From: Vulcanimicrobiota bacterium
GTDB lineage: Bacteria; Vulcanimicrobiota; Xenobia; Xenobiales; JADMJV01
NCBI GenBank assembly: GCA_050250895.1
Contig: JBFWNU010000001.1
Location: 808,008 to 872,007, forward strand
Length of the DNA stretch: 64,000 nucleotides
Direction: 5' to 3'
This document shows, piece after piece, positions 6,876-19,372 of this stretch (positions are counted from its first letter, which is position 1; each line of letters begins with the position of its first letter). The notes beneath the pieces are model-generated. The model did no database searches. It was given only the letters and a program-made list of their open reading frames with translations, and was not told the DNA's origin. A program made the position numbers and the translations under genes.

Positions 6876-8144
6876 GTGCAACTTAAGCATCGACTAGCCG
6901 CGACCCTATTTTTCGCGGTAGCCGTAATGGCCAGCCTGACGCACCAGCAGCTGGTCGACAAACAATCTCACTATATCCCCATCGATTATCGTCCCTTGCT
7001 GACGCAAGAGCAGCATTGCCGCACCCAGGAGAGTACCTACCTGGCCGTGCTGGACCACATTCAGAATCATTCGGTCAAAAGAATTTCTAACCGCGCCCTG
7101 GAAGCCTCGGTTCGGGCCGAGCTGGCCGAGCTGACCCGTCAGGCCGGGCTATCTCCGGTTCGCTTGACGGGCGAACTCAATCAGTTGCCGACCGAACTGC
7201 TCGAGGCCTACGGCGACCTTCCCGAGAACGCCGTCTTCTATGCCGGCGCCCAGGGTCTGGTGCGGGCTGTGGATCATCCCGAGGCCGAGCTGGTTGGCAT
7301 GCAGAACGACACCTACTATGGCAACCTCGGCCAGAGCGGAATTGGCGCCATCATCGGTCCCACCCGCGGGGCCCGCGGCATCCTGCTACAGACGGTTCTT
7401 CCCGGTGGTGCGGCCGACCAGGCCGGCTTGACCGGTGGCGACCTGCTGCTCGAGATCGACGACCGGGATTGCTCGGACATGTCGATGCCGATGGCCGTCG
7501 CCCTGTTGCGCGGCGAGGCCGGCCAACCGGTGAGCCTGCTGGTTCGCCGCGGCGACGGACTGCGGACCCAAGAGTGGACCGTACGCCTGGTCCGCCAGCC
7601 CCTCGACATCGACACCACCGTGGTCAGCCAAATTGACGGTGAAATGGCCAAGGTCCGCCTGCTGTGGCTTGACTCGCGCACGGCCATCCAGCTTGGGGAC
7701 ACCCTCGACGGTCTGGCCGCCCTGGGCGTGAAACAGGTCGAGCTCGACCTGACCCAAACCGCCTCCGGTAGCCTCAGCGACGTGGCCGCCATCGGCAGCC
7801 TCTTCCTTCCCGAGGGCACCAACGTGGGCGGCACCCGCACGGTCGATATGACCGCCAACTACTCGACTTATCCCAGCACGCGTCACTACGACTTCGACCT
7901 GACCGTGCTGGTCGGCCCCAATACCCGTGGCTCGGCTGAAGCCCTGGCCCAGGTATTGACCAGCCGCGGCCCGGCCCGCCTGACCGGGCAGCCCACCGCT
8001 GGCGACGGCCTGATTCCGACCTACTACTGCGAAGGCGTTAAACTGCCTGGTCGTAGCATCATCCTCAGCGACGGGACCGAGCTGGAAGGCCACGGCCTCA
8101 ACCCGCCCGTGCGCAACCTGAGCGACGCTTTCGGTCGACTGTAA
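6876..8144 (+). CDS. PDZ-containing S41/CtpA-like protein, catalytic residues apparently lost
   Basis: N-terminal signal/TM; SGIGA...PGGAADQAGL..GD.LLEID PDZ domain; degenerate S41 motifs DLTQTASG, TRGSAE, GQPTAGDG. Confidence 0.8.
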   Translation: MQLKHRLAATLFFAVAVMASLTHQQLVDKQSHYIPIDYRPLLTQEQHCRTQESTYLAVLDHIQNHSVKRISNRALEASVRAELAELTRQAGLSPVRLTGELNQLPTELLEAYGDLPENAVFYAGAQGLVRAVDHPEAELVGMQNDTYYGNLGQSGIGAIIGPTRGARGILLQTVLPGGAADQAGLTGGDLLLEIDDRDCSDMSMPMAVALLRGEAGQPVSLLVRRGDGLRTQEWTVRLVRQPLDIDTTVVSQIDGEMAKVRLLWLDSRTAIQLGDTLDGLAALGVKQVELDLTQTASGSLSDVAAIGSLFLPEGTNVGGTRTVDMTANYSTYPSTRHYDFDLTVLVGPNTRGSAEALAQVLTSRGPARLTGQPTAGDGLIPTYYCEGVKLPGRSIILSDGTELEGHGLNPPVRNLSDAFGRL

Positions 8145-8162
8145 GACGTCACCACTCGTCGC

Positions 8163-8195
8163 GAAAAGAGCGCCGGTTCGCCGGCGCTCTTTTTC
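8163..8195. terminator. bidirectional intrinsic terminator
   Basis: GAAAAGAGCGCCGG-TTCG-CCGGCGCTCTTTTTC between convergent genes. Confidence 0.9.
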
Positions 8196-8276
8196 ATGGG
8201 CGGTAGGTAGCCGCGCAATGGATCAACGCAAAGAGGCCTCGCGCCTTCGCGCCTGCGGCTTCCTCAAATCCGGCGC

Positions 8277-9401
8277 TTACCGCAGATTGACCGGGCCGAT
8301 GTGCTTGTAGTGGTCTTTGCCGCGGAAGCTGAAGGCTCGCAGCGGCTGGTTGGAGAGGCTCCTAGCCAGGTTGTCGGCGGTGGTCTCGCCCGCCTCTTTG
8401 GCCGAGTGTTTGTCGGCCGGCACGGGTTGGCCGCCGCTGCGGGCCAGCGCCGCGTCGCCGATCACGAAGACCTCGGGATGATCGGGCAGAGTCAGATGGT
8501 CGGTCACCTCCACCCGTCCGCCACGGGTGGTGGGACCGAGGCGTTGGAGGACCTCGGGTGACTCCGTGCCTACGGCCAGCATAATGGCGGAAGCTGAAAG
8601 CACCTCACCTGAGGTCAGTGTTACCTGACCTTCGGCCACGTCGGCAAGGCGCTCACCAAGACGCAGAGTCACTCCTTTCTCGAGCAAGGCCGCGGTAGCC
8701 CGGCGGCTCACATCGTCGGGCATCCCTTGGCACAGTCGGGGTTGGCTGTGGATTAGGGTAAGATTGAGATCTTTGGACAGACTGGGATCGACCTGCTCGA
8801 CCAGGTCGGCCACGATGCCGGCCAGTTCGACGCCGGTGGCTCCCCCACCGACCACCACGAACTGCAGTTGCTGGGCGCGGCGGCCAGGGTCGGTCTCGGC
8901 CAGAGCGGCCATCGCCTGGGTGCGAACCGTTTCGCGAATCTTCTGAGTGTCTTCAGGCTGGTCGAGGGTCAGCACGTGCTCGGCCCACTCGGGATGGCCC
9001 AACAGAGCCGGTCGCGAGCCCAGGGCTACCACCAGGTAGTCGTAAGAAATGCGCTGGCCGCGGTCAAGGACTACCTGGCGAGTGGCCACATCGATGTCGG
9101 TGACCTCGCCCAATCGCAGCTGGCCGCCGGCCTTTCCCACGACTTTGGCTAGCGACTGCTGGGCTTCAGAAGTCTCTTTCCCGCCCACCGTCACCTTCCA
9201 GAGCTTGGTCTTGTAGGTCTGAGCGGGCTTGCGGTCGACCAGGGTCAGGTGGACGGGCGCCTTGAGCGACTCGACGAACTCGACGCCGGCGTAGCCGCCT
9301 CCCAGCACCACCACCTTGGGACTGTCCTGACCGGGGGCTGGCCGCCGCTTGTGGTGGCCGGCCCGAAGGGTGGGGCTGAAGTTAGAAAGACGAGTGAGCA
9401 T
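8277..9401 (-). CDS. NDH-2/AIF-like FAD/NAD(P)H oxidoreductase with N-terminal extension
   Basis: VVVLGGGYAG, YDYLVVALGS, GGGATGVELAG and VFVIGD motifs; ATG 9401 with AGGAGG RBS. Confidence 0.88.
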   Translation of the reverse strand: MLTRLSNFSPTLRAGHHKRRPAPGQDSPKVVVLGGGYAGVEFVESLKAPVHLTLVDRKPAQTYKTKLWKVTVGGKETSEAQQSLAKVVGKAGGQLRLGEVTDIDVATRQVVLDRGQRISYDYLVVALGSRPALLGHPEWAEHVLTLDQPEDTQKIRETVRTQAMAALAETDPGRRAQQLQFVVVGGGATGVELAGIVADLVEQVDPSLSKDLNLTLIHSQPRLCQGMPDDVSRRATAALLEKGVTLRLGERLADVAEGQVTLTSGEVLSASAIMLAVGTESPEVLQRLGPTTRGGRVEVTDHLTLPDHPEVFVIGDAALARSGGQPVPADKHSAKEAGETTADNLARSLSNQPLRAFSFRGKDHYKHIGPVNLR

Positions 9402-9435
9402 CGGTTGTTCCTCCTGCTGGTTTGCTGGTAACAAC

Positions 9436-9467
9436 ACGATAGCAGGGTCGCCTTGACCAGACCTTGA
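9436..9467 (-). promoter_or_regulatory. direct-repeat promoter, copy 1 (drives the oxidoreductase)
   Basis: TCAAGG tctgg TCAAGG cgaccctgc TATCGT, starting just after the SARP-type regulator stop. Confidence 0.75.
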
Positions 9468-9475
9468 CCGACCGA

Positions 9476-11692
9476 TCAGGAGCCGACGATGCTTTTGTAA
9501 AGACGGGTGGTCTCGGCGCTGGGAGCCATGAACAGCTCTTCTTGCAAAGCTTCCTGGCAGCTCCAGTAGAGGCGCGCCACCCGCTCGGGTTGATCCGACC
9601 AGGCCCGCATCAAGACCTGGTAGGCTCCCTGATGGCAGCGGTCGAGCGAGAGCAGTTGTTCGCCCAGCGAGAGGCAACGTTCCCGCTGACCCAAGCGCTC
9701 ATGATGGTCCATCAAAAGCTCGAGGGCCCGGGTGGCCTGATCGCGAAACTGGCTGCGGTAGGGCAACACCCAGCTGTCCTCGACCGTTTCTAGCAGGTCT
9801 CCCTGATAGAGCGACACGGCCCGCTCGAGGGCCTCGACAGCCGCCTCCGTCTTGCCGTTCTGCCAGGCCTCGAAGCCACTGGTGACGGTCTGACCAAAGT
9901 CGAGGAAATCGGCTTTACAGGTGAAGTCCTGATTCCAGCGGCAGCAACCGCGCTGGTGCAGCACCGGGTCCGGCCCTTTACCGTCTGGAGACTTCAAGGC
10001 GCGGCGAATGTAGGTCAGGGCCGAATACAGGTTACCCTGGGCTCGGTCGCCCTCGAGCTCTTCCCAGAACAGGTCCGTGAGGCGTTCGTCAGGCACCTCG
10101 TTGCCGTTATGCAAGACCAGGATCAAAAAGAGCGAGCGACTCTTGTTGGTCTTCCAGTCCTTGTTGGTCAACTCGCGACCGTGGGCTCGCATGGTCAAGG
10201 GCCCGAAGGCCTCGAGTTCGAGGGTGGCGCCGGCTGCCCCCTCGGACCGGGGCGCGAAGCGAGCCGTCCAGGAACGGTCGCTCTCGGCCAGAGCATAGAC
10301 GGCCTGACTCAACCAGCGCTCGCGCGTGAGCACCCAGTGCAAGCCGGTCGCCTCCACCTCTTGCTCGAGTCGAGCCACCGCCTCTTGCAGCTGGCGCGGC
10401 GGGGGTCGCAAGCTTTCACCCCAGGCCTTGAGCAACAAAGCCCGCACCCGCCCGCGATTGGAGCCACTGCCGGCATAGATGGTCAGCGCTTCCTCCAATT
10501 GTTGGGCGGCCTGAGGGCGGCCCAGAGCCACTCCCAGAGCGGCTGACGTGGCCAGGGCGTCGGCTCGCTGCAGACTGCCGCGCGCCCGCTCGAGGGCCTG
10601 ACCGGCCAACTCATACCCGACCTCGGGCTGCTCGCAGGCGGCCTCAGCCAGGGCCAGCCCCAACAAAGCTTCGCACCCGGCCTGACCCTCCAGGCGCCGC
10701 AGCGCCTCGCGAGCGAGATCGGGCCGTCCGCCGTGCAGATAACCCAGGCCAAGCCCGAGCAGACGGCGACCGCCGGCCGGTTGCGAGGGCAACTCCTCGC
10801 GATTGCCGCTAAGCGTTCTCTCGAGTTCGTCGAGCACCTCGGCCGGGCCACTCCAATTGGAACGAAGCACCTCCAGGCACTCCTGGCGAGAAAGGCCAAC
10901 GGCGGCATCGCCGGGATGAGCCAGGGCATCGTAGCGCGAGACCACCGCCAGGATGGCCGATTCAGGACTCGAGACCGAGGCGCGGGCGCAGTTGATGCCG
11001 CCGCCCATCCACTCGATTACCGAGCTGTCCTGCCAGGCCTGACGCAAAGTGGGCTCTTGTTCGGCCAGCTTGCGACACAAACTGGCTCCAGAATCGAGCT
11101 CGTCGGGATGGCCGACGCTTTGCAAGATGGCTCCCAGCCCGACTCGCTCGGAGACATCGCCGGGCAGGTCCAGGGCGCGGGCCAACTGTCCCGCCAGGCT
11201 TCGCTGACGCAAAGCCCGGTCGCGGACCTGGGGGGTGGTGGCGCAGACCTCGGTCAACAGCCACTGGCTCAGTTGGCGAGCATCCTCAAAGCCTCGCTGC
11301 ATGCAACGATGCCACCAGACCTGCCGGTCCAACCATTCGAAAGCTCGCCGGATCGAGCGCAAGAAAGTGAGGTCGTCAAAAGGCTTGGTCAGAAAATCGT
11401 CGACCTGCAACCGAAAGGCTTCGACCGGGGCTTCAAAATCGGCAAAGCCGGTGATGACCACGGCCCGCGTCTCGGGAGAACTCTGGCGCAGGTGTCCCAG
11501 CATGGTCATGCCGCTCATGCCGGGCATCTTGACGTCGGTGACCACCAGGTCGAAGTGACGTTCCGCCGTCTTCTCGAGGGCCTCTTCGGCCGAGGTGGCG
11601 GTGGCCACCTCATAGCTCTCTTCTTCGAGCAGACAGGCCAGGCTGTCGAGCAGCAAGGTGTCGTCCTCAACCAACAAAATCGTTCTGGTCAC
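9476..11692 (-). CDS. response regulator: REC + degenerate HD-GYP + TPR + SARP-type wHTH/BTAD
   Basis: REC intact (VEDD, TDVKMP, TG, TKP). HD-GYP remnant GAILQSVG...AILAVVSRYDAL. C-terminal FGPL...WKT.KSRSLF..L..H...LFW...NLYSALTYIRRAL and LY.GDLL...W...LD...E/Q.AY..LMRA typical of SARP/BTAD. Confidence 0.85.
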   Translation of the reverse strand: MTRTILLVEDDTLLLDSLACLLEEESYEVATATSAEEALEKTAERHFDLVVTDVKMPGMSGMTMLGHLRQSSPETRAVVITGFADFEAPVEAFRLQVDDFLTKPFDDLTFLRSIRRAFEWLDRQVWWHRCMQRGFEDARQLSQWLLTEVCATTPQVRDRALRQRSLAGQLARALDLPGDVSERVGLGAILQSVGHPDELDSGASLCRKLAEQEPTLRQAWQDSSVIEWMGGGINCARASVSSPESAILAVVSRYDALAHPGDAAVGLSRQECLEVLRSNWSGPAEVLDELERTLSGNREELPSQPAGGRRLLGLGLGYLHGGRPDLAREALRRLEGQAGCEALLGLALAEAACEQPEVGYELAGQALERARGSLQRADALATSAALGVALGRPQAAQQLEEALTIYAGSGSNRGRVRALLLKAWGESLRPPPRQLQEAVARLEQEVEATGLHWVLTRERWLSQAVYALAESDRSWTARFAPRSEGAAGATLELEAFGPLTMRAHGRELTNKDWKTNKSRSLFLILVLHNGNEVPDERLTDLFWEELEGDRAQGNLYSALTYIRRALKSPDGKGPDPVLHQRGCCRWNQDFTCKADFLDFGQTVTSGFEAWQNGKTEAAVEALERAVSLYQGDLLETVEDSWVLPYRSQFRDQATRALELLMDHHERLGQRERCLSLGEQLLSLDRCHQGAYQVLMRAWSDQPERVARLYWSCQEALQEELFMAPSAETTRLYKSIVGS

Positions 11693-11705
11693 GGGCGGCG
11701 GTTCC

Positions 11706-13682
11706 TCATTTTCTTACCGGGTCCTCCACCAACTGGTGTCGCCCGTTTCGGATCTCGAGCAGATAGACGGGTAGCTCGGCCGGCATCTTGCCAGGGCTGA
11801 GATAGCCCGAGGCGCCGATGTAAGCCGGTTGCGTCGAGCCCAGGGCTCGAAGATTATGGCGGATCTGGTCGCGTGAGTGGCCCAGCCACGGCTCGAGCAG
11901 AGTGACTCCGTCATAGCCTTGAGCGGCGGCGCGAGTTGGCTCGACCCCAGGAAACTGGCCTTGAAACTCCTCTACGAAAGCCTTCACCGGAGCAGCCTGG
12001 GACTCGGGAAAGAAAGTCTCGGCCAGGCGCAAACCGTCGAGGGCGTCGCCCCCCGCCTCGAGCAGCCCGGCGCTGTATCCCACCACGTTGGAATAGAGTT
12101 CGGCCTGGGAACCCGAACGACGCAGCTGACGGGCGAACTCGCCCAAATAGCTGCCCGGAGCGGCTACAAAAAAGATAGCCTGCGCCCCTTTGAGTTCGTC
12201 CACCAGGGCCGAAAAGTCGCGGGTCGAGGTTGGGTAGGTGCGCTCGACCACGGTGGTCTCGCCGAGATTGCCTTTGACCACGAAGGCCAGATCGCGAGCC
12301 ATGGCCTGCTGATCATCGTAGAGTAGCCACACTTCCGAAAAATGGCGTTGGGCCAACTGGCGGGCCAGCGGCACCACCCTGGCCGGAAAGGGTGCACCCA
12401 GGGTGAAAAGGCTATCGCTTTGCCAGGCTTTGGGATGGGTCGCGCCCAAGGAAACCACCGGCAACTGTCGCCGGGCGGCCAAGAGCTCTACCGCCAGGGT
12501 GCGTTCCGAGTTGGTGGGGCCCAGCAAACAGCGAATCTTGGGGTCGGCTCCCAGGCGGTCCACCCAGCCCATGCTCTGGGCAATGGTGCTCTGGTCGTCG
12601 CATACCTGCAACCGCAGCGGCCGCCCCTGCTGCTGAACGCGTCGCTGAGCCAGAGCGGCGCCCTGAAGAAAGTTGCGAGCCTGGCGCCACTCTGGTCCGG
12701 TCAAGGGCACCACGATGGGTAGCACGGGTGATTCTGGCTGACCCAGGTTCTGGGCGGTGATGAGGGCCAAACCGTCGTCGGGCTCGGCCTGCTGCCAGCT
12801 TTGAGCCAGTTGTCGGGCCAAAGTCTCGTCGCCCTGCAGCAAGGCCTGGTCGATTCGAGCCAGAAACGGCGATACGCCGGGCTCGGTCGGACCCACCGGC
12901 AGCAGGCCCAGCACCAGGCAAACCAGGGAGCAAAGGCACAACAGCGTGGCCGTCCACAACGACCGGGCCGGAATCAGCGCCGCCGGCCGTCCCAGTTGAG
13001 CCAACCACTCGAGCAGCTCGGCACCGCTCTGGGGACGCTGGTCCGGATCGTGATGGGTCCACTTGTGCAGTAGCTCGGCGAAGGGCGAGCGGGCCGGTCC
13101 GATCATCGCCTCGAACAGCTTGCCAAGCGAGTAGATGTCGCTGCGGGCATCACACCGATGGTCGCTCTCCGGGGCCAGATAGCGCGCCACCCCGCCCGCG
13201 GCCGGACCGGGCGACTGGAGGGCCAGCCCGAGATCGACCACCCGCACGCTCCCACCGTCGTCGAGCAGCAGATTCGCCGGATTGAGGTCGACCAGATAGA
13301 CCGAGTGCTGATGGAGATAGTCGAGCAGCCGAGCCACCTCATAGACCACCGTCAAGGCCCGGGCCACAGGCAACGGCGCCTTTTCCAGCCGAGCCGCCAG
13401 GGTCTGGCCGCTGATAGCGTCCATGACTAGAGCGGGGCGACCTTCGTGTTCGAGGCGGTCCACCAGGGTCGGAAGAGCTCGATGCTGCAGTCGGGCCAGC
13501 AGTTGGGCCTCGGTGGCAAACAGCTGCTCGAGACGCACGCCAGGCACTCTGGGTTCGGCCAGTTTCACGGCCCAGCGCGTGCCCGGCAGGCGCAGGTCTT
13601 CGCACAACAGAACCTGGCTGGTGCCCCCCTGGGCCAACACCGCCGCCACTTTGTAGCGACCGCTGAGGACCTGCCCTATCAC
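11706..13682 (-). CDS. membrane Ser/Thr kinase fused to a type-1 (LivJ-like) periplasmic binding domain
   Basis: QGGTSQV, WAVK, DLNPAN, DLG, YLAPE and SDIYSLG kinase motifs; one TM; VPLTG...LGPTNS...AAQGYDG binding-protein pattern. Confidence 0.85.
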   Translation of the reverse strand: MIGQVLSGRYKVAAVLAQGGTSQVLLCEDLRLPGTRWAVKLAEPRVPGVRLEQLFATEAQLLARLQHRALPTLVDRLEHEGRPALVMDAISGQTLAARLEKAPLPVARALTVVYEVARLLDYLHQHSVYLVDLNPANLLLDDGGSVRVVDLGLALQSPGPAAGGVARYLAPESDHRCDARSDIYSLGKLFEAMIGPARSPFAELLHKWTHHDPDQRPQSGAELLEWLAQLGRPAALIPARSLWTATLLCLCSLVCLVLGLLPVGPTEPGVSPFLARIDQALLQGDETLARQLAQSWQQAEPDDGLALITAQNLGQPESPVLPIVVPLTGPEWRQARNFLQGAALAQRRVQQQGRPLRLQVCDDQSTIAQSMGWVDRLGADPKIRCLLGPTNSERTLAVELLAARRQLPVVSLGATHPKAWQSDSLFTLGAPFPARVVPLARQLAQRHFSEVWLLYDDQQAMARDLAFVVKGNLGETTVVERTYPTSTRDFSALVDELKGAQAIFFVAAPGSYLGEFARQLRRSGSQAELYSNVVGYSAGLLEAGGDALDGLRLAETFFPESQAAPVKAFVEEFQGQFPGVEPTRAAAQGYDGVTLLEPWLGHSRDQIRHNLRALGSTQPAYIGASGYLSPGKMPAELPVYLLEIRNGRHQLVEDPVRK

Positions 13683-14695
13683 GGGGCGAACCGGGCCGGC
13701 AAGATCAGATCGGCCCCTTCAGAATGACAACTGAGTCGCCCGCCAGCGGTGGCCACCGCATCCTGCAGCTGCTCAGAAATGTCGCCACCACCCTGCAGTC
13801 TGACCCAGACCTCGTCGGCCTTTTCCTGGGTGGTCACCGACACCTTGCCCATCATCAACTGACCCAACAGATGCCCCAGTCCGGCCGGATCGGCGATAAT
13901 GGTGTGGGTGAGTTGGCCGGGCCTCCAATCGATGCTCAGCCCCGAAGCCTGGACGGCCGCCTCGACCAGTTGATTGATATCGACCGGGACCCGTACCAAC
14001 TGGCTGAAGGTCACGTCCCGCTCGACCATATCGTAAGGTCGGCGGGCAAAGAGCATGAGTTTCTCGATGACCGTCTGGCAACGCTCGACCGAACGCTTGA
14101 TCAGATCGACCCGACGGGCCACGGCAGGGTCTTCACCCCGACCCAGGCGCGTAGCATTGGTCAGGATGGTGGCCAGCGGCGTGTTGAGTTCATGGGCCAC
14201 TCCCGCAGCCATCTTGCCCAGGGCCACAAATCCACGCCGGTCCTCGTCACCAAGGCCCGAAGCCCGATGGCGCAAGCTCTCGAATAACGGCAACACGGGC
14301 CGGCAATCGGCCGCCAGGGCGGCCGCCGAGCCAGCCTCACCCGTCCAGACCAGGGCCAGCCCAGGACTCAGCCGGAGGCCCTGACTCGAGCCCTCGTCAA
14401 AAAGCTGCGCGGCCGCGGCGCGGCAGTTCTCGAGCTGCCCGGACACCGGCTCCCAACTGCACAACAGGGTGGGTTCGGGACCCGAGAAAAGAAAGAGAGA
14501 CTCTAACCGGTGGTGCCGCCCCAGGATAGCCAGCACCTGGCTGCCGGCCTCGGTCACCTGGGTGGTCGAAGTGGCCGCCTGGGCCAGCTCCTCCCACAGC
14601 CGCGAGCGGCGGCTGGCCCGCACGAGCAGGGCCAGACTCAAGCAAGAAGAGATGGTTGCACCAAGGGCGGCCACGGCCAGCAGAGTGGTATTCAC
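13679..14695 (-). CDS. membrane histidine-kinase-like protein with intact HisKA and degenerate HATPase
   Basis: N-terminal TM; AAGVAHELNTPL H-box; no N-box Asn, no DxGxG, no GxGLGL. Confidence 0.8.
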   Translation of the reverse strand: MNTTLLAVAALGATISSCLSLALLVRASRRSRLWEELAQAATSTTQVTEAGSQVLAILGRHHRLESLFLFSGPEPTLLCSWEPVSGQLENCRAAAAQLFDEGSSQGLRLSPGLALVWTGEAGSAAALAADCRPVLPLFESLRHRASGLGDEDRRGFVALGKMAAGVAHELNTPLATILTNATRLGRGEDPAVARRVDLIKRSVERCQTVIEKLMLFARRPYDMVERDVTFSQLVRVPVDINQLVEAAVQASGLSIDWRPGQLTHTIIADPAGLGHLLGQLMMGKVSVTTQEKADEVWVRLQGGGDISEQLQDAVATAGGRLSCHSEGADLILPARFAP

Positions 14696-15819
14696 TGCGT
14701 CGGCGGATGAAACCCCAGGTGAAGGGCGCTGCGCACCAGCTTCGTGCCGAGTTCGGTCCGGGCCTCGAAGTCAAGACTAAGAGGCAACTCGAATAGCAGG
14801 GATACGCCAGCGCCGCCTTTGCCGGCTTCTTGCACCAGGGTCCCATCGTAGCGATAGGGCACCAGGCGAAAGTCATGCTCGCGCAGGACCGGCTCGAAGG
14901 CCTTCAGAAAGGCAAGGCTCTGCGGGGTGGGGTGGAAAATGCACAGACGGCCGGCCCGCCCCTGGTCCCATTCGGCCAGCCCCTCGTGCAAGTCGATCGC
15001 CAGGCCTGCCTGCTGAGCGGCACTACAGATCTCGGCCGCCCGTTGCTGCTCGGGAGTACCGTTAGGGTCGCCCGGAAAGATGCGGTTCATATCGACCGAT
15101 TGCCCGTCCTCACCGAGGTTGCGACGGCTAATCATCATGCCGGCCCAGGGATTGCCGTTGGAGAAAGTGCGCACCCGAGACTCGGGATGCTCGTCGTGGA
15201 TGGTCCCTGCCACGGCCATGCCGGAGAGTTCGTTGCCATGGACGCCTCCCACCACGACCGCCTTGCGCACCCGCTCTACCCCGTCGCTCGGGCGCATGTC
15301 TAGCCAGTCGCAGACCTGGTCGACGTTGGCGAAAACCATGTGCTGGGCCAGCAGTTGTGGATGCTCGTGCTTGAGCTGGCCAAAAACCTCGCGGGTGGCG
15401 GCGGGGTCGTCGGCCAGCCGAGCGCGCAGGGCCTCGACTTCACGAGGCAAGGTGCCGGCGTTGCGACGGTGAACCTCGAGCCGGTGCAGCAACCCGTCGC
15501 GAACCCGGTCGCTCATTCCATGGCCGGCCGTTCCCTTGAGCACCGCGTGACAGTCCTCGAAGAGCAGGATAGGCCGCCGACTCACTTTTGGCGGCTCCTG
15601 CCAATCCAGGGTTTTCGGAGCCGCCGCGAGCTGGCAAGTGGGGCCTTTGGGCACCGCCGGCGGCGGGGGCTCGGTGGGTGACGGTTTGGCGGCCGGGGCT
15701 GCCCCTAGCTCGCATTGGTCGAGGGGAAGGGGGGCCTCGTCGGTGGCGGGAGCCACAGTGAAGGCTCGATGGGGCGGAACAAACGCTTCCCGACGACCGA
15801 CGATCCCCTGCAACTCCAT
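14692..15819 (-). CDS. M14-type (succinylglutamate desuccinylase/aspartoacylase-like) zinc hydrolase with Pro-rich N-terminal extension
   Basis: GGVHGNE, DMNRIFPG and IDLHE motifs in the C-terminal half. Confidence 0.8.
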   Translation of the reverse strand: MELQGIVGRREAFVPPHRAFTVAPATDEAPLPLDQCELGAAPAAKPSPTEPPPPAVPKGPTCQLAAAPKTLDWQEPPKVSRRPILLFEDCHAVLKGTAGHGMSDRVRDGLLHRLEVHRRNAGTLPREVEALRARLADDPAATREVFGQLKHEHPQLLAQHMVFANVDQVCDWLDMRPSDGVERVRKAVVVGGVHGNELSGMAVAGTIHDEHPESRVRTFSNGNPWAGMMISRRNLGEDGQSVDMNRIFPGDPNGTPEQQRAAEICSAAQQAGLAIDLHEGLAEWDQGRAGRLCIFHPTPQSLAFLKAFEPVLREHDFRLVPYRYDGTLVQEAGKGGAGVSLLFELPLSLDFEARTELGTKLVRSALHLGFHPPTQ

Positions 15820-15860
15820 AGCATGGTTATGCCACCCCTATAAGGTCGTGTCAAGCTCAC

Positions 15861-15888
15861 AAAAAAAAGGGTTCCGCATAGCGGAACC
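15861..15888 (-). terminator. intrinsic terminator of the predicted sRNA
   Basis: GGTTCCGC-TAT-GCGGAACC-C-TTTTTTTT. Confidence 0.88.
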
Positions 15889-15916
15889 AACTAGGAGCTA
15901 TCTATTCTCACTCAAC
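15861..15916 (-). ncRNA. predicted ~56-nt small RNA
   Basis: Bounded by a TCAAGG-type promoter and an intrinsic terminator; no credible ORF. Confidence 0.6.
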
Positions 15917-15922
15917 CAGATA

Positions 15923-15954
15923 AGCTTAAGCCCACCATCTTGAAAAATCCTTGA
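15923..15954 (-). promoter_or_regulatory. direct-repeat promoter, copy 2 (drives the sRNA)
   Basis: TCAAGG atttt TCAAGA tggtgggct TAAGCT. Confidence 0.7.
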
Positions 15955-15964
15955 CGGGGGTTAG

Positions 15965-15996
15965 AAAGAAAAAAGGGCCCCGTGTTACCGGGGCCC
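15965..15996 (-). terminator. intrinsic terminator of 16021-16314
   Basis: GGGCCCCG-GTAACA-CGGGGCCC-TTTTTTCTTT. Confidence 0.88.
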
Positions 15997-16020
15997 GATA
16001 GCGCGTTCAACTAAGAACTC

Positions 16021-16314
16021 TTACTTGTGCAGGGCTTCGCTGACGCCGATCCCCGCGCACATAAAGCCGGCCATGACCGAGCTAAATCCTGTATAAGGGA
16101 AACCTACCAGGGCCAAACCGACTCCGCCGGCCATCAACACGCCGCCTGCGGCGAACCAACGACCGGGCTGCGGCTGGCTGGCCGTGGTCGAAGGGGTGAA
16201 GGTCTCGGTGGGCTCCGAATTCGATGCCGCGCGGCTCGACTGGGCTGGAACGGACGTGGCTTGTCGAGTATAAACTCTAGCAATGGATGGGCTGTTGAAG
16301 TGCGAACGAATCAT
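16021..16314 (-). CDS. small protein: Ser/Thr/Pro-rich N-terminus plus C-terminal Gly-rich two-helix membrane hairpin
   Basis: ATG 16314 with GAGGAGG RBS; own promoter and terminator; 97 aa. Confidence 0.75.
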   Translation of the reverse strand: MIRSHFNSPSIARVYTRQATSVPAQSSRAASNSEPTETFTPSTTASQPQPGRWFAAGGVLMAGGVGLALVGFPYTGFSSVMAGFMCAGIGVSEALHK

Positions 16315-16357
16315 CTTATCCTCCTCAGGCTGGCTCTGGGTCCTGCCTCCTGACATC

Positions 16358-16389
16358 AGACTAGCCGGCCCACCTTGACTTTTCCTTGA
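16358..16389 (-). promoter_or_regulatory. direct-repeat promoter, copy 3
   Basis: TCAAGG aaaag TCAAGG tgggccggc TAGTCT. Confidence 0.75.
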
Positions 16390-16398
16390 GCTGAAAAG

Positions 16399-16430
16399 TC
16401 AAGGTCAAGTCAAGGCTGAGCACCTATAGT
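16399..16430 (+). promoter_or_regulatory. direct-repeat promoter, copy 4 (leaderless)
   Basis: TCAAGG tcaag TCAAGG ctgagcacc TATAGT agggtc ATG. Confidence 0.78.
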
Positions 16431-16436
16431 AGGGTC

Positions 16437-16697
16437 ATGATCATTTCGACGCATTCACCCAAACATCGCTCTTCCTTGGCTCGCCCGGCTGTGGCCCGGC
16501 CCGAGCCCGAACCGCAAGACACTTACACGCCTGGCTCTCGCCCGGTGGTCATGGCCACGCCGGTCTTGACCATGTTCGGAGCGGCCGGCCTGGGCATCTA
16601 TCATGGTTCCTGGGCGCTGGGCCTGGTCGGGGCAGCCGGTGGGGCTTGCCTGGGGGTGGCCCTCGACTACGGCTTCAACAAATGGATGGCCTCATGA
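16437..16697 (+). CDS. small protein: Ser/Pro-rich N-terminus plus glycine-zipper membrane hairpin
   Basis: 86 aa; GAAGLG...GLVGAAGGACLG; leaderless start 6 nt after TATAGT. Confidence 0.75.
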   Translation: MIISTHSPKHRSSLARPAVARPEPEPQDTYTPGSRPVVMATPVLTMFGAAGLGIYHGSWALGLVGAAGGACLGVALDYGFNKWMAS

Positions 16698-16715
16698 AGA
16701 GGCTTGACACCGTGT

Positions 16716-17903
16716 CTAGCCTACTCGACGAGGCTTTTCGTGGATCGTGCCCGGCCTGCTAGCGGGAGGCTCAGGGGCCACGACTTTGGCGTAGACCGAG
16801 ACCAGCGCAAAACGCATCCGCTCTTTCCAGCAGCGGGTCAGCGGCTCGTCGCGGGTGACGTGAAAATAGGTATGGACAATCTTCTTGAGCACGCTCGACT
16901 CCATCATGTTTCCCCGCACGCGGCCGGTCTCGCGGTTGGCAGCCTCGACCGAGAAACGGTAGCGGTGCCCGGCAAACTCTTTGTTGGCGCGCACTGCCCG
17001 GTCATAGACCTGATCGATCAGATTCTTGGGCTTACCGCACTCGATGCGGGTTCCCAGACAGATCTCGGTCTCTTCCATGACGGCCCCGATGGGCACATAG
17101 TCGCCCACGCAGTTGAGTACTTCCAAAGCGGGCAGGCGGCTCTGATCGCGGTTGGTCAACGCCATGAAGTCGCGCAGCCCCTGATCGATGGGTAAGAGGT
17201 TAAGCTGAGCCGTCGGGTCGAGGTCCATGCGCACGGCATTGACCCCGGCCTTGTTGAGCTTGCGATAGCTCTCGAGAAACATATACAGCCCGAACGTACT
17301 GCCCTCGTAAGCGCCGGTCTTGGAATGGCCCACGCAGATGCTGGGGCGGATGATGCTCAGGGCGATATGGCTGCCGGCGGCCTCTTGAGCCAGCGACAGC
17401 TCGGTCATGCTCTTGGACATCTGATAGCCGTTGAGGAAATGGTCAGGCACTACCAGGTTCTCGGGCACCGGTCCCCGGTGCAAACCAGCCGAATAGGCTG
17501 TGGAAACGTAGTGAAACCGTCGACAATTGGGAGCATGGCGCTTGAGCACCCGCAGCAAGCCTACCGACCCGGCCACGTTGGTGATCATGCTATTGAAACT
17601 ACGCTTGCGTGAATACGACATCTCGGCTGCGCAGTGCCACACCATATCGACCTGATCAAGTCCCTTGGGCGGCAGCTGTCCCGGTTCAGCGCCCAATTCC
17701 CAGTGAGCGGCCTCAAGACGCGAACGCTCTTCGGGGGTCAAAGCCCAGCCCACGGCCACCGAGGCCTGCTCCACCGCCCGACGGATCTTGTCCGGGCCAC
17801 TTCGACCCAGACAAAGCACGCGATGGCCCTCCCTGAGCAGATTAGCCGCCAGAGCACTTCCTAAAAAGCCCGTGGCACCGGTCAATAAGATCGTCGAAGC
17901 CAT
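16716..17903 (-). CDS. extended SDR / fatty acyl-CoA (thioester) reductase-like protein
   Basis: LLTGATGFLG, WHCAA, YVSTAY, YQMSK and IRPSICVG motifs; ATG 17903. Confidence 0.85.
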   Translation of the reverse strand: MASTILLTGATGFLGSALAANLLREGHRVLCLGRSGPDKIRRAVEQASVAVGWALTPEERSRLEAAHWELGAEPGQLPPKGLDQVDMVWHCAAEMSYSRKRSFNSMITNVAGSVGLLRVLKRHAPNCRRFHYVSTAYSAGLHRGPVPENLVVPDHFLNGYQMSKSMTELSLAQEAAGSHIALSIIRPSICVGHSKTGAYEGSTFGLYMFLESYRKLNKAGVNAVRMDLDPTAQLNLLPIDQGLRDFMALTNRDQSRLPALEVLNCVGDYVPIGAVMEETEICLGTRIECGKPKNLIDQVYDRAVRANKEFAGHRYRFSVEAANRETGRVRGNMMESSVLKKIVHTYFHVTRDEPLTRCWKERMRFALVSVYAKVVAPEPPASRPGTIHEKPRRVG

Positions 17904-18010
17904 TTCAGTCCCCTTCCAAGTTCCGCCGCAGATACCACGAAGGGGGTGACAATTCCTCCGTCTGGAGACGGTCAACAGGAACCAATCCTGACAAGCAGAA
18001 GGGGTGTTCG

Positions 18011-19372
18011 GTGTTCCGCCACAGCTCGCACCAGTTACTCGACAACCCACCCGCCCTCCACTATGGCGCTGCAGCCGTGGATATCGACGGTGATGGCCTT
18101 TTCGAAGTGGTAGTCGCCGGCTTTCTCGGACCCAATCGGGTGCTCAAATGGAACGGGAAGGGTTTTGTCGATGTCGCCGAGTCGATGCTGGCAGACGTCA
18201 AACGCAAGACCATCGGGGTAGCCGGCTGCGATCTCGACGGCGATGGTCGTGAGGAGATCTATTTCCTCAACACCGACACCTTCGCCGGTCCCAAGCGTCA
18301 CTCGGATACCCTGCTAAAACACACTCCCGACGGTTGGATCGACCTGTTTCACCTCGACCAGAACGTCGAATTCGCCAATCTTACGGCCGGACGTTCAGTG
18401 GCCGTGCTCGACCGGCAGGGCAACGGTCGCTATGGATTCGTGGTGGCCAACTACGCCGGCCCTTTGGCTCTATTCGAGGCCGACACCGAGGGCCGAGTGC
18501 GGGATGTGGCTCCTCAGGCCCGGATCGACCGGGTCACGGGTGGGCGCGGCCTGGTCTGCGCCCCGCTTTTCGAGAGCCCCCTGCCCGACCTTTTCTGCAA
18601 CAACGAGAACGGCCCCAACTTTCTCTTCCGCAATTTGGGGGACGGCCGCTTCGACGAGGTGGCCGCGCTCTGCGGCGTGGCCGATGCCGGCCTGAACGGG
18701 CGCGGCGTGGCCGTGCTCGATGCCCGCCGAGATCGAAGACTGGACCTGGTTTGCGCCAACTGGGAAGGACCGGCCCGGCTCTATCGCCAGCGCGAGCGCG
18801 GACGCTACGAGGAGGCCACTCCGCCGGCCCTGGACCGCCCCGGGCCGACCCGAACCGTAGTGGTGGCGGACTTCGACCATGATGGCCACGAAGAGATCTT
18901 CTTCAACAACCTCAGCGCGCCTAACCGGCTCTTTGGCTGGCGTCAGGGGGGCTGGGTGGAACTCGATGTGGGCGAAGCGGCCGAGGCCGGTGCCTGGGGA
19001 ACGGGAGCGGTGGTCGGAGACTTCGACCAGGATGGTCGACTCGAGCTGTTGATCTGTCACGGCGAAGAGAAGATGGAGAGCCTGAGCCTGTTTCGCCCCG
19101 AGTCGGTGGGGCACCACCTGCGCGTCATGCCGCTGACCACGGCCGGCGCTCCGGCCCGCGGGGCCCGGGTGATCATCCGGGCCGGCGACCGCGAGCAGGT
19201 GCGAATCATCGATGGGGGAAGCGGGTATCTCTGTCAGATGGAACCCGTTGCCCATTTCGGGCTAGGCCCGCTGACCGAAGTCGAAGAGGTCGAGATTCGC
19301 TGGCCAGACGGCGCCGAAGTGAAGCTGGGCCGCCAATCGGCCGAGCAGACACTGAAAGTGAGACATCCGTGA
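18011..19372 (+). CDS. CRTAC1/ASPIC-UnbV family FG-GAP repeat protein
   Basis: Repeated D.DGDG motifs; C-terminal GGSGYLCQ..PVAHFGLG...V.IRWPDG. Confidence 0.9.
   Translation: MFRHSSHQLLDNPPALHYGAAAVDIDGDGLFEVVVAGFLGPNRVLKWNGKGFVDVAESMLADVKRKTIGVAGCDLDGDGREEIYFLNTDTFAGPKRHSDTLLKHTPDGWIDLFHLDQNVEFANLTAGRSVAVLDRQGNGRYGFVVANYAGPLALFEADTEGRVRDVAPQARIDRVTGGRGLVCAPLFESPLPDLFCNNENGPNFLFRNLGDGRFDEVAALCGVADAGLNGRGVAVLDARRDRRLDLVCANWEGPARLYRQRERGRYEEATPPALDRPGPTRTVVVADFDHDGHEEIFFNNLSAPNRLFGWRQGGWVELDVGEAAEAGAWGTGAVVGDFDQDGRLELLICHGEEKMESLSLFRPESVGHHLRVMPLTTAGAPARGARVIIRAGDREQVRIIDGGSGYLCQMEPVAHFGLGPLTEVEEVEIRWPDGAEVKLGRQSAEQTLKVRHP

Follow-up and report, generated by a model that had tools for sequence, protein, structure and literature searches.

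At promoters activated in the class II manner by PhoB/OmpR proteins, tandem winged-helix domains sit on 11-bp direct repeats that take the place of a −35 box, and pho boxes form two-box arrays (four repeats) at strong promoters. Antibiotic regulatory proteins of Streptomyces (SARPs; AfsR, ActII-ORF4 and DnrI) and EmbR of Mycobacterium tuberculosis combine a winged helix-turn-helix (wHTH) of the OmpR type with a BTAD domain that follows it, and EmbR is encoded beside the Ser/Thr kinase PknH. SARP targets are described as direct repeats spaced 11 or 22 bp apart, of which the 3′ one lies 8 bp from the −10 box, and the SARP box overlaps the −35 region; when AfsR is bound in its transcription complex, two SARP protomers lie next to each other, each on an 11-bp repeat whose first 8 bp it contacts (PMC10936776). 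Members of COG3947 are described as a CheY-like receiver joined to a SARP-family DNA-binding activator (PMC3564903), and this "SAPR family" is reported from 8.4% of 628 species (PMC7046781). Here we examine four promoter-like sites and a response regulator gene in a 64,000-nucleotide stretch of the genome of a Vulcanimicrobiota bacterium (GenBank assembly GCA_050250895.1, contig JBFWNU010000001.1, positions 808,008 to 872,007; "the window" below means this whole stretch). The sites share a tandem TCAAGG repeat at a fixed distance from a −10 box. That they are activator-dependent direct-repeat promoters is, judging from their sequence, the conclusion in which we have more confidence; that the regulator encoded between them binds and activates them seems to us probable.

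Like the SARPs and EmbR, the window regulator has an OmpR-type wHTH with a BTAD directly after it. It departs from the SARPs in that its SARP module is C-terminal, behind a receiver domain (REC) and a helical linker of ~370 residues, instead of N-terminal; its host lies outside the Actinomycetota, in the Candidatus Xenobia lineage; its neighbourhood is not a biosynthetic cluster; and its predicted targets comprise genes for small membrane proteins, for a flavoprotein and for a lipid desaturase, as well as small RNAs. An N-terminal module, an actinomycete host and a role as cluster-situated activator of secondary metabolism are thus all absent, although these features are customary rather than structural. 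As with AfsK and AfsR, a Ser/Thr kinase gene adjoins the regulator gene, and the number of repeats per promoter varies, from two to four here and from two to three in SARPs (PMC10972967). PhoB has no BTAD and only a short linker between REC and wHTH, so that the window regulator, with its long linker and its additional domain, falls outside the OmpR family in the narrow sense. Its domain content (a REC with a phospho-acceptor Asp, and a C-terminal wHTH and BTAD) is that of COG3947, the ground on which membership is assigned here, and distant relatives bear the JGI label "two-component SAPR family response regulator". The original prediction of an undescribed regulon was therefore too strong as regards the protein class, which those catalogues already hold. 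However, the window regulator and its paralogs are long (about 740-850 residues) and carry a large helical insert, in which they differ from that family, and in the limited collection of literature searched we found no COG3947 or REC-SARP member with a described binding site or regulon.

Four direct-repeat sites and their register

The four sites, all of which were found on the sequence at the positions and strands originally given, are as follows.

9436..9467, minus strand: site 1, TCAAGG (9467-9462), TCAAGG (9456-9451), N9, −10 box TATCGT (9441-9436)
15923..15954, minus strand: site 2, TCAAGG (15954-15949), TCAAGA (15943-15938), −10 box TAAGCT (15928-15923)
16358..16389, minus strand: site 3, TCAAGG-N5-TCAAGG-N9-TAGTCT
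16399..16430, plus strand: site 4, TCAAGG-N5-TCAAGG-N9-TATAGT

Site 1 starts 8 nt past the stop codon of the regulator gene, and sites 3 and 4 stand back to back with their distal repeats 9 bp apart. The exact pattern that they share, TCAAGG-N5-TCAAGR-N9-TAnnnT, has four matches in the window, compared with none (mean 0.00) in 100 dinucleotide-preserving shuffles. When the whole genome was scanned, as had been proposed (9,497,728 bases in 17 contigs), allowing TCAAGR in both units gave five matches, namely the four window sites and C3:138537 on the plus strand. Relaxing the proximal unit to YCAAGR raised the number to 12, while the reversed control gave 0; three of these 12 are identical tandem copies (C3:788171, 788553 and 789026). 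The window sites have only the hexamers and the −10 box in common and, because their N5 and N9 spacers differ, they are not mere copies of one another. On its own, TCAAG-N6-TCAAG, with the same 11-bp period, is not enriched in the genome (37 occurrences, versus 18-34 at spacings off the codon period), and TAnnnT or CATAAT follows in the N9 register after 13 of the 16 genomic TCAAGG-N5-YCAAGR sites. The signal is the combination of full hexamers with a fixed −10 distance, and not a bare short repeat.

The TCAAGG hexamer resembles the TCGAG-type heptamer of ActII-ORF4 and DnrI. Repeat units in the window sites cover roughly −40 to −22 at 11-bp spacing, and the hexamer together with a conserved upstream G or GG (GGTCAAGG) makes an 8-mer repeated at 11 bp. 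Since the hexamer ends 9 nt before TAnnnT, or 8 nt if the unit is read as a heptamer, the layout agrees, as had been claimed, with the published SARP geometry of an 11-bp period and a 3′ repeat 8 bp from the −10 box (PMC10936776). The candidate target promoters thus have the SARP arrangement, and binding by the regulator is predicted. As at SARP targets, the repeats overlap a −35 box that is missing or poor (PMC10936776): with a 17-nt spacer, the would-be −35 hexamer reads AGGnnn, and the promoters therefore have no −35 box and stand in the SARP register.

The regulator, its operon and its orthologs

The regulator is encoded by the last gene of a four-gene operon lying between sites 1 and 2.

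14692..15819, minus strand: AstE/AspA-like deacylase homolog, first gene of the operon, leaderless ATG at 15819
13679..14695, minus strand: HisKA-domain protein, 338 residues (Pfam)
11706..13682, minus strand: fusion of a Ser/Thr protein kinase with a periplasmic binding-protein domain (Peripla_BP_6; Pfam)
9476..11692, minus strand: regulator, 738 residues, with REC, helical linker, wHTH and BTAD (Pfam, profile and structural model)

No other protein of this conserved operon has a DNA-binding domain. Pfam detects no HATPase_c domain in the HisKA protein, and the kinase with its periplasmic domain is a candidate ligand sensor.

In the regulator, the REC (residues 5-110; Response_reg, E 6.6e-27) is followed by an all-helical linker (~107-480, with a weak match to TPR proteins between 107 and 480), the wHTH (~490-590) and the BTAD (595-735; E 2.2e-16). 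Residues D10, D11, D53, T81 and K103 of the receiver are invariant in 11 orthologs. The last 260 residues match EmbR by phmmer (E 3.4e-4), and a profile of five orthologs aligns over positions 16-246 (231 positions) to the SARP domain of AfsR (8hvr_I, from the cryo-electron microscopy structure 8HVR; E 2.4e-5) and also matches EmbR (E 1.7e-3). For an AlphaFold2 model built from 11 orthologs (mean pLDDT 79.4), Foldseek ranks the AfsR chains 8k60_J, 8k60_I and 8hvr_I first, with TM-scores by target length of 0.69-0.71 over about 254-262 columns; EmbR comes next, and identity to AfsR and EmbR is about 18-21%. The claim of a SARP-type regulator at 9476-11692 is thus borne out by the Pfam domains, by the AfsR profile match and by AfsR and EmbR as top structural matches: the protein is, by homology and structural modelling, a response regulator with a SARP module as its output.

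Our comparison set contains 44 genomes of the class, among them the source genome (G000), one genome of the same genus (G001) and the genomes of a genus in another family (g4). Orthologs of the regulator (50-54% identity, E below 1e-130) occur in five of the 44, namely the source genome and four of the five g4 genomes, and were found neither in G001 nor in the 14 other genomes of the source genome's family. A search of genome contigs with full-length alignment picked receiver-domain peptides, with one true ortholog among 80 loci. A metagenome search with C-terminal alignment added two orthologous loci; both are of the g4 type, so that the number of independent lineages remains two.

In the six orthologous loci that we read (L013-L016, L110 and L111), the regulators are 49-54% identical to that of the window over their full length, or 57-59% where only the C-terminal part was matched, and the four-gene operon is conserved, with orthologs of the fused kinase (49% identity) at the same position in four loci. 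All six carry TCAAGG-N5-YCAAGG at, or overlapping, the 3′ end of the regulator gene. The arrangement there is an array of four 11-bp units, the two nearest the −10 box being degenerate, followed by N9, TAnnnT and a leaderless ATG. In g4-type loci, a second four-unit array stands a few kb away, upstream of an ortholog of the window flavoprotein. The recognition helices of the two lineages differ by one residue (RAQGNLYSALTYIRRAL versus RAQANLYSALTYIRRAL). In proteins P0009 and P0010 this helix is altered (STLTYVRR).

The g4 regulator frame itself runs into the first two repeats, giving the proteins non-homologous C-terminal tails, SR(I/L)SQGS and RNSQGSPQ (for example SRISQGSSQ), which are translations of TCAAGG-N5-YCAAGG (L013:12596-12625 and L014-L016; proteins P0003-P0008).

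Promoters and regulator also tend to occur together. The two-unit pattern TCAAGG-N5-YCAAGR-N9-TAnnnT has 12 matches in the source genome, one in G016, one in G022 and none in the other 41 genomes, and the reversed control gave 0 everywhere. Its four-unit counterpart, TCAAGG-N5-YCAAGG-N31-TAnnnT, is found in all five g4 genomes (1, 2, 5, 3 and 5 matches), once in the source genome, once in G042 and nowhere else. One or the other pattern is therefore present in five of the five genomes with a regulator ortholog, compared with single matches in two of the 39 others (G016 and G042), and G001 has none. As a control for detection, the unrelated-hexamer pattern TTTCAG-N5-TTTCAG-N10-TAnnnT was recovered 23 times in the source genome and 25 times in G001, and turned up in all 15 genomes of the family, all five of g4 and all three of f4; its reversed control gave 0. 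Assembly quality alone is therefore unlikely to explain why TCAAGG promoters are missing from those relatives in the family, and the scan of relatives that had been suggested shows co-occurrence of TCAAGG promoters with the regulator ortholog across the class.

What binds the repeats

The identification of the window regulator as the binder and activator of the TCAAGG promoters, which we hold to be probable, draws on sequence pattern, conservation, phyletic co-occurrence and domain homology; from these we infer binding, activation and signal. We propose that the four sites would act as activator-dependent promoters of the SARP type, without a usable −35 hexamer, and that the response regulator whose gene lies between them is the likeliest activator. 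A histidine kinase would phosphorylate this protein at Asp53, and the neighbouring Ser/Thr kinase, which has a periplasmic ligand-binding domain, would probably modulate it. Two SARP modules would bind side by side, one per repeat, and would recruit RNA polymerase in the fashion of AfsR. Such a mechanism is in itself a known one; the architecture is catalogued but functionally undescribed, and the lineage is uncultivated.

Several observations weigh against this assignment. The Trans_reg_C match expected for the wHTH lies at residues 515-569 with E 3.5e-3, under the Pfam threshold. Eight of the 12 exact sites lie a long way from the gene of the regulator. Phyletic support amounts to two independent lineages and not five, since the g4 genomes are close kin. 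In some genomes without an ortholog, bare TCAAGG-N5-YCAAGR moderately exceeds its reversed control (12 versus 3 in G009, 12 versus 3 in G003, and 10 versus 4 in G005). G016, a 90% complete genome, has a perfect four-unit site (G016:C140:25985-26038, four perfect TCAAGG units and TAATCT, orthologous to G020:C30:16401), and neither a regulator ortholog nor a kinase ortholog was found there. Finally, the source genome encodes 27 wHTH-BTAD proteins and many OmpR-type regulators, any of which could in principle read an 11-bp repeat.

The last two points speak for another reader, encoded elsewhere, of genuine activator-dependent promoters: either some other wHTH-BTAD paralog, of which there are 26, or a response regulator of the OmpR/PhoB type, the proximity of the window regulator then being coincidental or a matter of co-regulation. 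We regard this as rather unlikely. In its favour, PhoB-type regulators use the same 11-bp direct-repeat layout and one OmpR-type regulator gene (C6:94892-95569, minus strand) has TCAAGGATATGTCAAGA upstream. That repeat, however, has no −10 box at N9, and the closest relative of the C6 gene (55% identity) is in G001, which has no TCAAGG promoter. The nearest paralog (C6:247057-249495) is just 34% identical and has a different recognition helix, that of the window regulator being unique among the 27, and neither a TCAAGG nor a TTCAG repeat was found within 25 kb around it. Any binder must match the distribution over the source genome and g4, and the window regulator is the sole DNA-binding gene shown to do so. 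The nearest paralog is itself adjoined by a HisKA gene and a gene for a kinase fused to a periplasmic binding-protein domain, so that the sensor module is duplicated as a unit.

It is very unlikely that the TCAAGG units are instead read directly by an alternative sigma factor, as a divergent −35-type element with an upstream duplicate. The lack of a canonical −35 box, the fixed distance to the −10 box and the presence in the genome of several other hexamer families in the same register would all suit such a factor. Yet a tandem direct repeat with one helical turn per unit, reaching four units in g4, typically marks the binding of winged-helix proteins as multimers, and not that of sigma region 4; nothing distinguishes the −10 box from an ordinary TAnnnT; its distance is 20 nt to the distal unit and 9 nt to the proximal one, neither of which suits a spacer of 16-18 nt; and the conserved operon has no sigma gene. 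Most improbable of all is a copied promoter cassette or chance similarity without a common regulator, since the three identical copies on contig C3 are the part of the 12 exact sites that it would account for, while the other sites keep hexamers and register amid differing spacers and flanks, shuffles and reversed controls give 0 matches, and the pattern is kept at orthologous positions across two families.

Predicted outputs of the regulon and related promoters

If the window regulator does read the repeats, its outputs at the locus would be a pair of small membrane proteins rich in Gly, an NDH-2-like flavoprotein and a short RNA ending at a terminator, encoded and delimited as follows.

8277..9401, minus strand: pyridine-nucleotide-disulphide oxidoreductase (Pyr_redox_2, NDH-2-like), 374 residues (Pfam E 5.9e-41), predicted target of site 1
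16021..16314, minus strand: Gly-rich predicted membrane protein, 97 residues, predicted target of site 3, start at 16314 after GAGGAGG
15975..15996, minus strand: intrinsic terminator of the site-3 gene, 8 G-C pairs then a T-run
16437..16697, plus strand: Gly-rich predicted membrane protein, 86 residues, leaderless, predicted target of site 4
up to 15861, minus strand: predicted short transcript of site 2, ~55 nt, ending at a hairpin (15888-15870) and T8
15826..15854, minus strand: the operon's own sigma-70-type promoter, read from the sequence as TTGACA (15854-15849), N17, CATAAC (15831-15826), N6 and the ATG at 15819

It had been claimed that each site points into a transcription unit, and that in one case the ATG lies 6 nt after the −10 box. 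The latter is site 4 (TATAGTagggtcATG, ATG at 16437). The former holds for sites 1, 3 and 4: site 1 is predicted to drive Pyr_redox_2, whose leader of ~30 nt contains the ribosome-binding site AGGAGG, and sites 3 and 4 precede the two Gly-rich proteins, neither of which has a Pfam family. For the site-3 gene, an ATG at 16356 was rejected as the start, being 1 nt past the −10 box and upstream of the expected transcription start. At site 2 the claim fails as regards the operon, as only a terminated unit of ~55 nt follows. The hairpin at 15888-15870 (8 pairs then T8) lies ~35 nt past the expected start, and the sequence indicates that site 2 makes a short RNA and not the operon mRNA, although read-through is possible. 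Rfam gave no relevant match for this RNA at E <= 1 (window 8000-18500). The operon promoter is omitted by a consensus promoter scan because the sixth base of its −10 box is C; g4 orthologous loci have TTGCCC-N17-TAGTCT-N6-ATG at the same place before the operon. Given the terminator after site 2 and the operon's own leaderless promoter, we see no clear sign of direct autoregulation.

Genes that lack a leader and have their ATG 6 nt past the −10 box are common in this genome, being found at five of the 18 sites of the genome scan described below, at several TTTCAG sites and at the operon's own promoter. Convergent on the site-4 gene is a gene for an NAD_binding_4 (thioester-reductase) domain protein (window 16716-18050, minus strand). 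The 163-residue open reading frame at 16704-17195 (plus strand), which overlaps it, belongs to no family and was rejected as a gene.

A position weight matrix built from 11 sites of the source genome detected 18 sites there at a threshold of >= 22 bits, comprising the 12 exact ones and about six weaker ones. The self-contained circuit originally envisaged is thus not what the genome holds, as eight further exact sites and about six weaker ones lie elsewhere, and the regulon would number about 12-18 promoters. Its putative targets include a second Pyr_redox_2 paralog on contig C4 (47% identical to that of the window, leaderless), a CarF-like lipid desaturase (Pfam Lipid_desat, E 6.6e-43; NCBIfam plasmanylethanolamine desaturase, E 1.5e-28, below the cut-off), an acyl carrier protein, several Gly-rich membrane proteins that belong to no family, and a ~60-nt small-RNA gene in five copies, consisting of the core TCAGTGAGATGAGCAAACGGTTGGAAC and then a terminator. 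In g4 genomes, repeat promoters likewise precede genes orthologous to the desaturase (45-49% identity) and to the flavoprotein (54%). These conserved outputs point to membrane or redox functions and, more speculatively, the desaturase, the acyl carrier protein and the NAD_binding_4 gene hint at chemistry of the ether-lipid or plasmalogen type.

A lower-scoring repeat site (27.6 bits; C1:3412000-3418500, L155) lies before an open reading frame of 63 residues, two related peptides (46 and 54 residues) and an Asn_synthase-family gene (E 1.1e-23), a cluster that may be lasso-peptide-like.

The small-RNA-like gene belongs to a multi-copy family of about 55-60 nt in which the 5′ core TCAGTGAGATGAGCA is conserved, whereas the terminator hairpins vary in sequence with their pairing preserved. 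The source genome has 20 copies (C3:788171-791300, C4:344839-344935, C7:147960-148070 and about 15 other places), G001 has 10 and some g3 genomes have 3-6. Rfam gave no relevant match for them at E <= 1 (L018 and L020), and a search for mRNA complementary to the core returned more gene copies of the RNA and scattered matches of 12-14 nt; the gene may instead be a conserved tiny open reading frame. Most copies have promoters of another type. TT(A/G)ACG-N5-GTGACG-N9-TAnnnT, a third repeat promoter in the same register, has 18 sites (for example C1:1327815, C8:237364 and C9:17023), of which 15 belong to small-RNA copies and three to other genes. The five other copies carry the TCAAGG/CCAAGG promoter instead, which looks, from these sequences, like promoter swapping within one small-RNA family.

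The TTTCAG pattern used above as a control came from a de novo scan and represents a second and larger direct-repeat promoter family in the same register, several of its genes being leaderless (for example C4:250612-250683, C1:328999-329423 and C12:104730). The 27 wHTH-BTAD (SARP-like) genes of the source genome are mostly open frames of 720-990 residues. Taking these observations together, one could tentatively envisage, as a possibility that we would not yet favour, that large-genome relatives use paralog-expanded REC-SARPs as their main class of activators, each reading its own hexamer in the fixed register hexamer-N5-hexamer-N9/10-TAnnnT (at least three families, TCAAGG, TTTCAG and TTAACG/GTGACG, often leaderless). 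The TCAAGG regulon would then be a recently acquired or retained branch that couples two kinases, a Ser/Thr kinase that senses a ligand and a histidine kinase, to the remodelling of membrane lipids (CarF-like desaturase, acyl carrier protein and NDH-2-like flavoproteins) and to a subset of the small-RNA family.

SARPs have been studied almost only as activators of antibiotic production in actinomycetes, and the locus described here places a SARP fused to a receiver in an uncultivated lineage. For the COG3947 class, which is catalogued but functionally undescribed, it supplies a predicted motif, a promoter geometry identical to that of the AfsR complex and a regulon that can be listed from sequence. 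The same approach lets regulons be read from the genomes of organisms that resist cultivation.

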